This document shows positions 52,197 to 58,152 of a DNA stretch of 64,000 bases, one piece after another (the first letter of the stretch is position 1; every line of letters begins with the position of its first letter). A program made the translations under genes and the position numbers. A model generated the notes under the pieces. The model did no database searches. It saw only the letters and a list, made by a program, of their open reading frames with translations, and was not told the origin of the DNA. This DNA is from an uncultured virus (IMG/VR IMGVR_UViG_3300028393_000045) (lineage: Duplodnaviria; Heunggongvirae; Uroviricota; Caudoviricetes), in IMG/VR virus record IMGVR_UViG_3300028393_000045. One strand, given 5' to 3'.

Positions 52197-52826
52197 TTAA
52201 TAATAAGGTCCAAAATCTGGAGTACGTTGATATCTTGCAACATATGCATTCCACATTAGAGAAAAATCGTTGCAGGTAAACAAACTAATTAACTGCTTTT
52301 GATTTAAATAGTTTTCAGTATGTGTACCTACTGTTTTGTTTATTAGTGCTACATATTGATCTGCTACTGGTAAATCAAATGCTTGCAATAATCTAACTGA
52401 TTTTTTTAGCGTATCTTGGCTACCTGCTAAGTCGTCAACTAGTAAAATAGGATTACCGGTTACTCTGCCTTCGGTGAAATTTAATAATCCGTACGATTTA
52501 CGTGTTTTTTTTAAACTAATCATTGGTGACCCTAATATTTGAGCCATACCAAATCCTAGTGTAATTCCTGCATCCTCGCATGCCCCAATTTGCACATTAG
52601 TATGCGGCAATTTTTCTATTAGAAGTTCTGCTGCTGTAGTTACAAACTTAGGATCAAATAAACATCTACGCAAATAGAATTGCCAATAGTAAGAATCATT
52701 TGCTGCTTTTGCTGGAATTGCTGCTTGCCCATCTGGCACTCTATAAATGCCGCGATGCTCAATTTCGTTTCTTAAATAAATCCATTTTTCGTTACTAATG
52801 CTCATGCAAATAAGTCCTCGTTCCAT
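52197..52826 (-). CDS. Type I phosphoribosyltransferase (PyrE-like fold); start probably at MSIS (52802)
   Basis: PRPP loop ILLVDDLAGSQDT; K.RKSYG flexible loop. Confidence 0.7.
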   Translation of the reverse strand: MERGLICMSISNEKWIYLRNEIEHRGIYRVPDGQAAIPAKAANDSYYWQFYLRRCLFDPKFVTTAAELLIEKLPHTNVQIGACEDAGITLGFGMAQILGSPMISLKKTRKSYGLLNFTEGRVTGNPILLVDDLAGSQDTLKKSVRLLQAFDLPVADQYVALINKTVGTHTENYLNQKQLISLFTCNDFSLMWNAYVARYQRTPDFGPYY

Positions 52827-53299
52827 TCACGATGTCCTTCACGGAAAGCCATATTGGCCTGTGTCTCACGCACTTCCACACGATAACACCACAGTCGCTT
52901 GGCTTCACCTTCGCCCCAGTAGTCGGGGATATAAACACCATTGACATACTTGTACAGCATGTCACTCAGCGACTCGCATCCCATGGCTGGCAGGATAGTC
53001 AGTTTGGCCAACTTACGGCGTTCCATTTCTTTGTAGAACTCAAGTTCTGGATCATCATGTGCCACCAGAGTTGTGTGATCAAATTGGTCTTCTAATATCT
53101 TTTTAAGTTCTTTCAATCCGCCGTAGTCAGCAACCCAGTTGCGAACGTCTAAGTCGTTGGTTCCAAAATAGAACTTCATACTAAACGAGTAACCGTGATT
53201 CATATTGCAATGACTATCGGCCCTCCATTGTCTATAAGCGCAAGGAAATGCGTCTATGTACTCTTTTGTACTAGTGTACTTGTATGTGATTGGGGTCAT
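52802..53299 (-). CDS. queD: 6-carboxy-tetrahydropterin synthase (PTPS family)
   Basis: SHC...HGY, DYGGLK, FDH, E..N; deazaguanine gene context. Confidence 0.85.
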   Translation of the reverse strand: MTPITYKYTSTKEYIDAFPCAYRQWRADSHCNMNHGYSFSMKFYFGTNDLDVRNWVADYGGLKELKKILEDQFDHTTLVAHDDPELEFYKEMERRKLAKLTILPAMGCESLSDMLYKYVNGVYIPDYWGEGEAKRLWCYRVEVRETQANMAFREGHREWNEDLFA

Positions 53300-53381
53300 G
53301 CTGTTTCTCCTATGTTAATTATAGCATAGGCGGCGGAGTTTGTAAAGCGGGACGATGCCGATAGACCGCTGTATGTATTTA
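53300..53381 (-). promoter_or_regulatory. Late promoter plus structured, riboswitch-like 5' leader of queD
   Basis: TAAATA 53376-53381; AGCGG/CCGCU stem; CGGC/GCCG pseudoknot; CCUAUG/CAUAGG stem over the SD. Confidence 0.65.
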
Positions 53382-53383
53382 TC

Positions 53384-53827
53384 TTATTGTTCGGATACGT
53401 TTAGTATTTGAGCTGCTTGAACATCATCTTCTAAAATATTACCATTCTCATCTACTAGACAGATTTTAATTGGATTACTAATACGCATATAGGAACCATC
53501 AATAATCCATTGATCGTCAATTCCGTTAACTCCGTCTCTTCCCCAATTAATTCCAATACTATCTGTTTCTTCTTGAGTAAAATCACCGTAGAATTTGTAG
53601 AATGTTTGAAATTGATTTTTGTACACACATGTATCCATTGGAAAATGCATATTGTCGTCGTTTATTTCTTGCTGTGTAATTGGATTGTCTAAACTTCTAG
53701 TTCCGTATCCGGATACATATGTATCAGTTACGCTCCAACCGCGATCATTGTTTACAGACTTAATATTATAATAAACACTAATGCTACCGTTGTCGTATGT
53801 TGGATACACTCTGTATGAATTTGTCAT
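53384..53827 (-). CDS. Hypothetical protein
   Basis: 147-aa ORF, SD AAGGA. Confidence 0.65.
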   Translation of the reverse strand: MTNSYRVYPTYDNGSISVYYNIKSVNNDRGWSVTDTYVSGYGTRSLDNPITQQEINDDNMHFPMDTCVYKNQFQTFYKFYGDFTQEETDSIGINWGRDGVNGIDDQWIIDGSYMRISNPIKICLVDENGNILEDDVQAAQILNVSEQ

Positions 53828-55749: not shown

Positions 55750-56718
55750 TTATGATAGGGTTTTTTGCCATTGCCATGCAGTTGCTACAATATTTTCGAT
55801 AGTACTATTGCGTGGCCGCCAAGAGGTTAGTTGTTTAAATTTTACGCTGTCGGCTACAAGTTTATCTGGATCACCCTCACGGCGTGGCCCAATATCTACA
55901 TTGATTGTATCTCCTACAGCATAACTACATGCATTAATAATTTCTTTATTACTATAGCCATGGCCAGTTCCTAAGTTGTATGCTTCGAACCTTCCGGGAT
56001 CGAAACTTTCAGCCAAACACACAGATTCTAAATGTGCCTGCGCGATATCAGTTACATGCAAATAATCGCGTATGCAAGTGCCATCTGCGGTATCATAATC
56101 ATTTCCGTTTAATACAAATGATTTCTTATTTTGATATGCACCTAATATCCGAGGAATGATATGTGTAGCATCAGCAGTATGACCTAATGCTCCTCCGGCA
56201 TCCGCTCCGCAGGCATTAAAATAACGTAATGCAATACCTTTGTATCCGTGTGCATTGCAATGATCTGCAATCACTTGTTCGCACATGAGTTTACTCCACC
56301 CATATGGATTCATTGGTTCTTGTTTAGAAGATTCACTAATAGGATTAGAACAGTAATTACCGTAGGTAGCAGCACTACTACTGAAAACAATTTTACCTGA
56401 CCAACCGTGCAATTGATCTAACAAAATGTTAGTTTTTGACACATTATTGTTATAATATTCACCAGGATTGGTCATGCTAGGACCTACTAGACTTGTACCT
56501 GCACAATGTATAATAGCATCTGCATTATTTATTTTTGCAGCAGTTGCAGCAACATCGGTGTAGTCGGCTACTAGCATATTGTCCATATAATGTGCAGCCT
56601 TGGGTATAGTTATAGTGCGATCAACACCGATAACATAATACCCTGCTTCTTTAAAAGTCTTGGCGGTATGACTGCCAATAAATCCAAATGCACCAGTAAT
56701 TACAACTCTTTTACTCAT
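55750..56718 (-). CDS. galE: UDP-glucose 4-epimerase-like extended SDR
   Basis: TGAFGFIG, FSSSAATYG, YGWSK, LRYFN, DGTCIRDYLHV, RREGD. Confidence 0.85.
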   Translation of the reverse strand: MSKRVVITGAFGFIGSHTAKTFKEAGYYVIGVDRTITIPKAAHYMDNMLVADYTDVAATAAKINNADAIIHCAGTSLVGPSMTNPGEYYNNNVSKTNILLDQLHGWSGKIVFSSSAATYGNYCSNPISESSKQEPMNPYGWSKLMCEQVIADHCNAHGYKGIALRYFNACGADAGGALGHTADATHIIPRILGAYQNKKSFVLNGNDYDTADGTCIRDYLHVTDIAQAHLESVCLAESFDPGRFEAYNLGTGHGYSNKEIINACSYAVGDTINVDIGPRREGDPDKLVADSVKFKQLTSWRPRNSTIENIVATAWQWQKTLS

Positions 56719-56719
56719 A

Positions 56720-57898
56720 TTAATATTTTGTTTCGTGTGTGTGTTTCCGATAGTCTGTGCTCATACGCAGCCATTTCTCGCCTGTACCTTGCAAGATATC
56801 AACCACGCGATCAATGGTACCATCATTCCAGTCACTGATCTCGCCTTGGCGTTCGTGTGCATAACCCAGTAGATCTTCCAGCTTGGTCAATGCATCATCG
56901 ATGCTCCAAGGGATATAAAGTCTTGTAGGATCGTTAGCAAAGGTTTCGGGGAAACTGCGATAAGCAGGGTAAAGTACATTACAACCAAGAGTGTCCGCTT
57001 CTGATACAGTGTTTGAGACCCAATCTTGTAAAGCGCAATTAAAAAGCACACGAGTATCATTAAGGAGAGCATAGTAGTCGTTCTTTTCCAAGTCCTCATA
57101 GATTGTCAGCAGGCCACGTGCTGCAAGATTGTGTGTACGAGCCATGTAGCTGTCGTTGTTGCTCTTTAGTTTTGCACCACTGAAGATACAGAACTCTACT
57201 GGATGTGCCGGAAAACGTGCATGCCAGGCTTCGATAAGATCCATGTAAAAGTCTGGTTGCTTTTCTTGATCCCAACGTGCAGCAAAGCCCACACGCATGG
57301 TGCGATCACCAAAGTCCTTTAGTTCGCCAGGCACACGGCTACGTACTTCTGCCTTGCCAAATGCCAAGCCTGAAATATTGTAGATAGGACTTTTCCAGCC
57401 TGCAACCTTCATGTGCATTACCATTTCTTCATTGGTGGCCAGTACTCCGTCGACAAAGCTGTCCACCATTTTTTCATAGTGTCCCATGAAATCTTGCATA
57501 CCCCATACATGAACAAAATCGTCAGGATCAATGGACTGAGCAAGACAGCGAACATAAATCCTAGGCCGGTGACTGTTATCGATCTGTTTAAGAATATACG
57601 GGAGGCTTTCGATTCCAGGCTGAAACATGTCTTCAAAGTAAATAACATCTTCATTGTTGAGTTCTCCTGCCTTCATCATTCTAATTAGATTCATCAACTG
57701 GCTCATACCAAAGTATGTGCGGCCGTGTGCATCCAGTACTTGTCCAGTTACAATGGCTTGATCGTTGCTGAGTGTTTCGCCGGGTACTATAACATAGTCA
57801 ATGCCGCGTTGTTCAAAAACAGCACGATTCCACTCTTGCAGTTGTAGAGTGTATCTGGCCTTGTAAGGTTCAAGACCCATGTAATAAAGTTTACGCAT
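56720..57898 (-). CDS. GT-B fold glycosyltransferase
   Basis: RWDQEKQP, QDWVSNTVSEA..LGC..L.P..RSFPE (GT4-like C-terminal motif); start reassigned to MRKLYY. Confidence 0.75.
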   Translation of the reverse strand: MRKLYYMGLEPYKARYTLQLQEWNRAVFEQRGIDYVIVPGETLSNDQAIVTGQVLDAHGRTYFGMSQLMNLIRMMKAGELNNEDVIYFEDMFQPGIESLPYILKQIDNSHRPRIYVRCLAQSIDPDDFVHVWGMQDFMGHYEKMVDSFVDGVLATNEEMVMHMKVAGWKSPIYNISGLAFGKAEVRSRVPGELKDFGDRTMRVGFAARWDQEKQPDFYMDLIEAWHARFPAHPVEFCIFSGAKLKSNNDSYMARTHNLAARGLLTIYEDLEKNDYYALLNDTRVLFNCALQDWVSNTVSEADTLGCNVLYPAYRSFPETFANDPTRLYIPWSIDDALTKLEDLLGYAHERQGEISDWNDGTIDRVVDILQGTGEKWLRMSTDYRKHTHETKY

Positions 57899-57909
57899 GA
57901 TATTCCTTA

Positions 57910-58152
57910 TTAACGAGCATCGTTTCCATAACGACGTCCTTGACGTATCATCCATCCCCAGTTGTCACGAGGCCAGCGTCCATTCTGGAAACGTATATAG
58001 TCTCCAAATGGGCTATACTCATTGCCCAGATGGGCTTCGTTAAACGGAAAACCATAATCCGCACAAAATTTGCAATACTTATCGAGGTCGTCAAAAATAC
58101 GACTCACTTCTGGTTTCATGACAAAATATTTTTTAAGTTGATGATTAGACAT
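57910..58152 (-). CDS. Hypothetical protein
   Basis: Likely start MSNHQ with SD AAGGA. Confidence 0.6.
   Translation of the reverse strand: MSNHQLKKYFVMKPEVSRIFDDLDKYCKFCADYGFPFNEAHLGNEYSPFGDYIRFQNGRWPRDNWGWMIRQGRRYGNDAR

Follow-up and report, generated by a model that had tools for sequence, protein, structure and literature searches.

This paper concerns the leader of queD, a gene of the 6-carboxytetrahydropterin synthase family, in an uncultured virus of the Caudoviricetes (IMG/VR record IMGVR_UViG_3300028393_000045); the whole 64,000-nucleotide (nt) stretch of that record which we analysed is referred to below as the window. The leader contains a small RNA pseudoknot, and several described systems bear on how such an element might act. 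In guanidine-III (mini-ykkC) and other small ON riboswitches, an H-type pseudoknot stabilised by its ligand leaves the ribosome-binding site free. The THF-II riboswitch, or folE motif, belongs to leaders of the pterin and GTP-cyclohydrolase pathway; structurally a hairpin containing an internal loop, it recognises a guanine-like face. The leader pseudoknot of T4 gene 32 nucleates binding of the single-stranded DNA-binding protein which that gene encodes. The nearest known system is the preQ1-I riboswitch (RF00522, types I-III), which the available text of PMC10622847 describes as an H-type pseudoknot with a helix P1 of 5-6 base pairs (bp) and an A-rich tail along the P1 minor groove; its specificity cytosine is 97% conserved and read by Watson-Crick pairing, and the Shine-Dalgarno (SD) sequence is sequestered in its second helix, P2.

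A scan of Rfam 15 with E-values allowed up to 10 matched no family, whether in the 2-kb region, the 91-nt leader alone or 20 diverse loci, which confirms the statement of an earlier model-made reading of the window (the first-pass annotation) that the structure does not match preQ1-I, -II or -III. Chance matches to a small nucleolar RNA, a microRNA and a plant-virus pseudoknot were rejected, all of them falling far under gathering scores. No published description of the motif was found in the full-text literature, the coverage of which excludes subscription journals. With guanidine-III the queD leader has in common a small H-type pseudoknot with a predicted ON design, but it stands in an unrelated gene context and has no Rfam match; with THF-II it shares the pathway context, but THF-II is not a pseudoknot, and here too Rfam gives no match. 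Like the T4 gene 32 leader it is an H-type pseudoknot in a phage 5' leader, with a presumed role in translational control; it differs in preceding an enzyme gene, and in being common to QueD clades that are only 39% identical.

On the minus strand of the window, positions 53370-53329 form a 42-nt H-type pseudoknot, in which a 5-bp P1 is crossed by a 7-bp P2. Its elements are given below, where A3 (58 sequences) and A4 (50 sequences) are the alignments into which the related leaders were split by length class, because both MAFFT and an alignment fitted to a covariance model (R1, built from 54 sequences) misregistered P2 between the two length classes.

53383-53300, minus strand: leader gap, 84 nt, directly before queD
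53370-53366, minus strand: P1 5' strand AGCGG, pairing with 53350-53346; 100% of alignment cells paired
53365-53360, minus strand: loop L1, UCUAUC; C and U at positions 2-3 nearly invariant, length variable
53359-53353, minus strand: P2 5' strand GGCAUCG, pairing with 53335-53329
53352-53351, minus strand: loop L2, UC; C53351, directly before the P1 3' strand, invariant in A3 and A4
53350-53346, minus strand: P1 3' strand CCGCU; covariation in A3 and A4
53345-53336, minus strand: loop L3, UUACAAACUC, an A-rich tail; A at positions 3, 5, 6 and 7 and U, C at 9 and 10 invariant in A3
53338-53335, minus strand: CUCC, the last L3 bases plus C53335
53335-53329, minus strand: P2 3' strand CGCCGCC; its last two C also begin the SD hairpin
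53299-52802, minus strand: queD, 165 amino acids (aa), 6-carboxytetrahydropterin synthase family (PF01242, E 6.9e-15)

All of the elements which the first-pass annotation had named are found where it placed them. Its P1 is exactly right, and three of the five P1 pairs covary. The crossing helix that it proposed is also real and covarying, but its register for that helix, CGGC/GCCG (53360-53357/53334-53331), is shifted by 2-3 nt from the register of the family, which in the window reads G53359-C53329, G53358-C53330, C53357-G53331, A53356.C53332, U53355.C53333, C53354-G53334 and G53353-C53335. The shifted register is possible in the window sequence, since GCCGCC offers two registers.

The fold is carried by comparison among relatives. 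In A3, 93.9% of cells are paired overall and 7 of 11 pairs have changed on both sides; none of 500 shuffles reaches the observed value on any of five measures, and when the partners are slid by 1-3 columns pairing falls to 30-61% (at most 60.8%). The corresponding figures for A4 are 86.3% of cells paired and 9 of 14 pairs changed on both sides, with four measures beating all 500 shuffles. For P2 taken alone, 88.8% of cells are paired in A3 and 78.4% in A4, and four and six pairs, respectively, have changed on both sides. An anchored, alignment-free test points the same way: out of ten P2 positions, 6.61 pair with the leader's own 3' strand, versus 5.08 with the strands of other leaders. Conservation and covariation among homologous leaders had been named beforehand as the test of the structure, and both are present in the two alignments.

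The consensus that emerges is as follows. P1 has five pairs, of which the last two are always G-C, and it occurs in six variants, each with its own complement: AGCGG/CCGCU, UGCGG/CCGCA, ACCGG/CCGGU, AUCGG/CCGAU, AGUGG/CCACU and AGAGG/CCUCU. L1 begins NCU and continues as a variable U-rich stretch; L2 has 2-4 nt with an invariant C at its end; and L3 reads WUAYAAAYUC. The 5' strand of P2 ends in UC(A/G) and its 3' strand begins with (U/C)GC. P2 thus opens with a closing pair that reads G-C in the window and A-U in the majority of relatives (one exception among 58 sequences); the second pair is C-G; the third position is an invariant U.C mismatch in A3 and A4 (U53355 facing C53333 in the window); and beyond it lie four to seven more pairs, which covary. 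In one distant variant (L060, about 2915-2970) the mismatch is replaced by a U-A pair.

The relatives come from IMG/VR. A scan guided by QueD gave at least 80 loci with QueD 82-100% identical, and an exact 29-mer from the leader gave 16 more contigs, in some of which QueD is only 39-54% identical (tblastn); the leader is therefore better conserved than the QueD that it precedes. At least 120 further loci (about 1,200 stored stretches, estimated) match a degenerate pattern of the core, and a pattern for the P1 variant AGAGG/CCUCU adds at least another 120 (about 600 stretches, estimated), so that by extrapolation the motif occurs in about 1,800 stored IMG/VR contig stretches. Among the 216 related loci of the first set there are 204 motif instances and 131 distinct aptamers, a copy of the window's own region (L001) being left out of the count; the AGAGG subfamily contributes 96 instances in 120 loci and 76 distinct leaders. 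The total is 300 instances and 207 distinct sequences.

R1, run with filters off, matches the window once, at 71.5 bits with the runner-up at 10 bits, and it matches the whole 109-kb record once as well; thus the element is not a repeated promoter or terminator module. Across 100 sources R1 finds 97 matches, missing three distant variants (L053, L060, L080). The first protein downstream of the motif is PF01242 (PTPS/QueD) in 33/37 and 17/17 representatives, while in the remaining four of the 37 an inserted gene comes first and queD directly next, so that queD is the first or second gene in 37/37 and 17/17. The two main QueD types behind the motif are only 39% identical. The inserted first genes encode a cupin and unknown proteins of 85, 236 and 243 aa; the last three received no name from Pfam, NCBIfam or PHROGs. 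As judged by sequence comparison, then, the leader pseudoknot is real, strongly conserved and specific to queD.

Some loci show unusual arrangements. Between the pseudoknot and queD, L147, L101 and L159 carry a cupin-domain gene (113 aa), an 85-aa open reading frame (ORF) or a 243-aa ORF, which could be members of the regulated operon. L091 (681-1526) has tandem pseudoknots, the first (P1 AGUGG/CCACU) before an unnamed 236-aa ORF and the second before queD. In L198 and L056 only a 4-codon ORF with a TTG start follows the pseudoknot and SD, queD in L056 lying about 900 nt further on; these may be decayed or rearranged platforms.

The pseudoknot is followed by a second structure, which covers the ribosome-binding site:

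53330-53309, minus strand: SD hairpin CCUAUG / 10-nt loop / CAUAGG; arms 53330-53325 and 53314-53309
53311-53307, minus strand: Shine-Dalgarno sequence AGGAG, 7 nt before the AUG (53299-53297)

This hairpin had been described as a stem that sequesters the SD. It is present, and it covers the AGG of the SD, but it is not a fixed sequestrator: C53330 and C53329 belong to it and to the 3' strand of P2 alike. Because these two residues are shared, P2 and the hairpin are alternative structures, and the predicted logic is ON; that is, formation of the knot would free the ribosome-binding site.

The same logic recurs in at least five platform designs, and in every design examined the ribosome-binding site finds its complement in the P2 3' strand. 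In type 1, the type of the window, the last two C of P2 begin the hairpin CCUAUG/CAUAGG, and type-1 relatives have CCUAUA/UAUAGG or CUCUAUU/AAUAGAG instead, with the same 2-nt overlap with P2. The P2 strand of type 2 (UGUCGUC) is predicted to pair with GAUGGCA over the AUG, and that of type 3 (GCCAUUG) with CAAUGGC over the AUG; in the AGAGG subfamily the predicted pairing is of AAGUCAUC with GAUGACUU over the AUG, or of ACUCC with GGAGU at the SD. Computed for 184 distinct leaders, the pairing of the P2 3' strand with its own ribosome-binding site is worth -9.13 kcal/mol, compared with -7.52 kcal/mol for the strands of other leaders and -6.58 kcal/mol for shuffled strands, and the own strand is the better one in 83% and 93% of cases, respectively. 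With the P2 strand removed, the SD of type 1 is predicted to become more accessible (0.57, up from 0.25), and so is the AUG of type 2 (0.30, up from 0.02) and of type 3 (0.50, up from 0.00); the structure further downstream is predicted to lose 4-8 kcal/mol. Moreover, where a shared C is replaced by U, the P2 partner is A in three of five distinct leaders and forms G.U in the other two, and the hairpin retains a U.G, so that neither pairing is lost.

We assign a probability of roughly 0.6 to the reading that the leader is a cis-acting, riboswitch-type RNA which acts as a translational ON switch for queD. By sequence and by structure prediction it has the features generally looked for in a riboswitch: a conserved and covarying 5' leader, invariant unpaired bases, downstream genes of one pathway, and an alternative partner for an aptamer strand. 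The proposal of the first-pass annotation is upheld in part, in that the leader is a conserved, covarying and phage-borne cis-RNA specific to queD. The fold, its conservation and covariation, the exclusive link with queD and the complementarity of the P2 strand to the ribosome-binding site are direct observations, from which we infer both the sensing of a small molecule and the ON direction.

The comparison with preQ1-I can now be made. The queD leader shares with it, as preQ1-I appears in the available text of PMC10622847, the H-type pseudoknot with a 5-bp P1, an A-rich L3 after P1 (with four invariant A in A3), and a C (C53351) just 5' of the P1 3' strand, at the place of the specificity base in preQ1-I, a likeness of sequence only. 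The queuosine / 7-deazaguanine pathway context is also alike. The queD leader nevertheless does not reach the RF00522 covariance model. Its P2 has 7-10 bp with a conserved U.C mismatch, as against a short P2; its L2 has 2-4 nt and its L1 begins NCU; its SD (53311-53307) lies outside P2, 18 nt or more downstream, whereas the SD of preQ1-I is described as lying within P2; its predicted logic is ON rather than OFF; and the motif is seen only in phage contigs, before queD.

The phage-only distribution deserves a closer description. In a collection of bacterial genomes, a pattern free of P1 matched at least 120 loci in 40 of the 64 parts of the collection (about 200 matches estimated, near a rough chance estimate); among the 120 loci listed, 24 have some 5-bp complement upstream and only one, L298, carries the true motif (54.6 bits, type 3). 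L298 is a 5.8-kb contig binned with a Bacteroidetes metagenome-assembled genome; it is probably a phage fragment, and at best a weak hint of a host. Megablast of the region against GenBank phages gave no match, and blastn of type-1 and type-2 leaders against the same phages gave partial chance matches only, at E 0.7 or worse. The nearest QueD in cultured phages is 50-53% identical.

The window's leader contains promoter-like sequences as well:

53381-53376, minus strand: TAAATA, candidate phage promoter element, 5 nt upstream of P1
53346-53318, minus strand: embedded sigma-70-like promoter TTTACA-17-TGcTATAAT, 11/12 hexamer matches plus TG, predicted start about 53311

The first of these had been put forward as a late promoter. 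The motif is indeed present and recurs 4-24 nt upstream of P1 in 65/102 type-1 leaders, most often at 5 or 8 nt, and within the window it occurs in the 60 nt upstream of 12 of the 60 called genes (its reverse complement, 3 of 60). The term 'late promoter', however, is only an analogy: a T4-type late promoter was rejected, the full T4 consensus TATAAATA being depleted in the window (2 found versus 11.65 expected).

The embedded promoter does not figure in the first-pass annotation and is new for this type of leader. Its -35 element, TTTACA (53346-53341), consists of the last P1 base and L3, and its -10 element lies in the hairpin loop. Across 102 type-1 leaders the -10 is conserved at T1 (101), A2 (101) and T6 (99) while the middle positions vary, giving the pattern TAnnnT; among the 98 type-1 leaders with a TGnTAnnnT match, 78 have a 17-nt spacer and 20 an 18-nt one. 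L3 position 4 is C, the -35 consensus, in 95/102 type-1 versus 5/51 type-2/3 leaders, counts that are not corrected for relatedness. Types 2 and 3 have no internal -10. A sigma-70-type promoter of at least 9/12 stands just upstream of P1 in 20/21 type-3 and 17/31 type-2 leaders, versus 4/102 type-1 leaders, and for the majority of the listed cases the -10 ends 7 nt short of P1, which would place the start of the transcript at the knot. A terminator scan found nothing at the leader.

TAAATA lies within 32 nt of P1 in 14/31 type-2 and 10/21 type-3 leaders. In many of these leaders (L165, L025, L164, L171, L014, L035 and others) it has a fixed place inside the TTGACA-16/17-TATAAT spacer, which points to an additional promoter specific to the phage, or a regulator site, overlapping a host-type promoter.

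The window is part of a 109-kb virus record that is rated about 31% complete. Near-complete contigs with the same locus measure 331-382 kb, and by this comparison the source is an uncultured jumbo phage. Among RNA libraries, those in which the locus appears are metatranscriptomes of lake water. On the minus strand the gene order is folE, four small unnamed ORFs, the 84-nt gap, queD, and then phosphoribosyltransferase-like, MazG-like and QueE-like genes:

55673-54963, minus strand: folE, GTP cyclohydrolase I (PF01227, E 4.8e-39), upstream of the leader
52826-52197, minus strand: phosphoribosyltransferase-like gene (PF00156, E 0.0016, under the curated cut-off)
52178-51900, minus strand: MazG-like gene (PF03819, E 4.5e-7)
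51961-51047, minus strand: queE-like radical SAM gene (TIGR03365, E 4.4e-16, under the cut-off; PF04055)

The last 25 nt of queD (52802-52826) are shared with the start of the phosphoribosyltransferase-like gene, and translational control of queD may extend to that gene by coupling. Upstream, folE is adjoined by a gene for an NAD-dependent sugar epimerase (PF01370, E 4.8e-45) and an unnamed 411-aa ORF (55750-57955, minus strand).

In the 109-kb record a Pfam search found neither QueC (PF06508) nor TGT (PF01702). Among five relatives rated 95-100% complete (G001-G005), TGT was found in none, with the limit that distant DpdA types could escape the Pfam model; DpdA3/4-type enzymes could be so missed by PF01702, to judge from the available part of PMC10516641. 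For QueC the same five gave weak partial or PP-loop matches only, one of them above the cut-off, at 26 bits. Since nothing beyond these weak matches was found, the phage itself probably makes no preQ0 or preQ1, as far as gene content can tell. A similar gene set is that of the QueC-free 7-deazaguanine (dDG) system of Cellulophaga phage phiST, which, in the available text of PMC10516641, likewise has FolE, QueD, QueE and a MazG-like protein without QueC; DpdA3 or DpdL was not identified in the window, however. The word 'riboswitch' is absent from the available text of that paper, the main one on phage 7-deazaguanines.

On the ON-switch reading, regulation could proceed as follows. The 42-nt pseudoknot would form at the 5' end of the queD message, and the 3' strand of P2 would either close the knot or pair with the ribosome-binding site, in the window through the CCUAUG/CAUAGG hairpin over the AGG of the SD. 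A small ligand that stabilised the knot would draw the two shared C out of the hairpin, whereupon the SD would open and queD would be translated; coupling would carry translation on into the overlapping phosphoribosyltransferase-like gene, and perhaps into mazG and queE. In type-1 leaders the embedded promoter, if active, could add short transcripts, beginning at about 53311 in the window, that bypass the sensor.

The invariant C beside P1, together with the pathway, suggests a ligand with a guanine-like face. Such a face is common to GTP, the pterins and all of the 7-deazaguanines. Under ON logic the most sensible candidate would lie on the substrate side, either the FolE product dihydroneopterin triphosphate or GTP, and a 7-deazaguanine product (CDG, 7-deazaguanine, preQ0 or preQ1) would be less sensible; that is, ON logic and the exclusive tie to queD favour induction by the substrate of QueD over product feedback. 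A fuller version of this proposal, which we put forward tentatively and with some doubt, is a phage-only class of substrate-induction riboswitch, which would sense dihydroneopterin triphosphate or another guanine-faced precursor and turn on QueD and the coupled 7-deazaguanine genes, the dual-coded promoter of the window's lineage yielding unregulated short transcripts by the host polymerase, and an upstream phage promoter yielding long ones gated by the ligand.

Several points weigh against an ON switch. In A4 the fifth measure (further pair types) stands at 14 versus 14.9 in the shuffles and is reached by 461 of the 500, and the shuffle controls as a whole ignore relatedness, so that their counts are not probabilities. 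The P2 of the window carries adjacent A.C and U.C mismatches and is weaker than that of its relatives. Nested folding of the window's sequence is ordinary (minimum free energy -14.3 kcal/mol, z -0.44), although nested folding cannot show a pseudoknot, and the evidence for the fold is comparative and not thermodynamic. A first, cruder measure of accessibility, which pooled SD and AUG, gave small effects against shuffled strands (0.40 versus 0.45), and all of the accessibility figures are nearest-neighbour predictions without pseudoknot energetics. The only evidence from RNA libraries is a single 265-nt lake metatranscriptome contig, which matches 53279-53543 without a difference and spans the leader into the upstream gene; the assembled contigs of the three lake-water runs covered give neither starts nor strand, stretches that they leave bare carry no information, and DNA carry-over is possible. 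If the embedded promoter were the principal one, many transcripts would lack the aptamer. Finally, ON control of a biosynthetic gene is unusual, and a protein binding its own mRNA would also account for a motif tied exclusively to queD.

This last possibility is one of several alternatives. QueD or another phage protein would recognise the pseudoknot and control translation in the manner of T4 gene 32; the motif is tied only to queD operons, and its invariant loop bases could equally be protein contacts. Near-identical aptamers, however, precede QueD proteins of only 39% identity, and the aptamer also precedes inserted and unrelated first genes (the cupin and the 85-, 236- and 243-aa unknowns). 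The knot lies 18 nt or more from the SD, moreover, and a protein stabilising the knot would be switching on its own production, contrary to the usual autogenous logic. We regard a protein-binding leader as unlikely.

Alternatively, the leader might be an OFF switch of the preQ1-I type: once bound to preQ1, preQ0 or another 7-deazaguanine product, the knot would stack on the SD hairpin, make that hairpin more stable and so repress queD by feedback. We think this quite unlikely. The Rfam preQ1 models find no match even at E 10, either with the 91-nt leader or in the 20 diverse loci, and the SD lies outside P2. In its favour, the two have in common an H-type fold, a P1 of 5 bp, an L3 rich in A and an invariant C just ahead of the P1 3' strand (PMC10622847, available text). 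The distal P2 pairs, however, share nucleotides with the hairpin or AUG helix, and both pairings are maintained. Feedback repression is the usual logic for a biosynthetic gene, but in the five near-complete relatives no QueC was found beyond weak PP-loop matches.

A structured leader that works without a ligand, whether by a knot that forms first in transcription and keeps the ribosome-binding site open, or as protection of the 5' end or a thermosensor, strikes us as similarly improbable. With its 7-10 bp in many relatives, P2 is long and might need no help to be stable; yet a plain helix would not require the near-invariant unpaired bases (the L2 C, the A, U and C of L3, and the U.C mismatch). 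In every platform, moreover, a strong competing helix of 4-8 kcal/mol is kept over the ribosome-binding site, which would be pointless if the site were always open, and this strong default helix disfavours a merely constitutive leader.

That the leader is a DNA-level element only (the sigma-70 promoter with CCTATG..CATAGG as a palindromic operator and the upstream GC-rich stem as a weak terminator) is very improbable, because the 11/12 promoter match with TG, the TAnnnT pattern and the type-1 preference for C at L3 position 4, which speak for it, are set against compensatory P1 and P2 changes within type-1 leaders too, against types 2 and 3, which keep the knot with the promoter upstream and no internal -10, and against the empty terminator scan. 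On these grounds the embedded promoter looks like an added layer rather than the whole explanation.

If the RNA binds a metabolite, it would represent a new riboswitch class found only in phages and also the first known sensor to control production of a modified DNA base by which phage genomes are shielded from host nucleases. The ON wiring of the element, the reverse of that in the preQ1 riboswitches which it resembles, would show the rewiring of a very small pseudoknot scaffold. The aptamer, of about 42-50 nt, is directly testable as a synthetic RNA, without a cultured phage. Where the constraints of RNA structure and of a promoter overlap in one sequence, as they appear to do in the window's type of leader, the element offers a compact example of dual coding.

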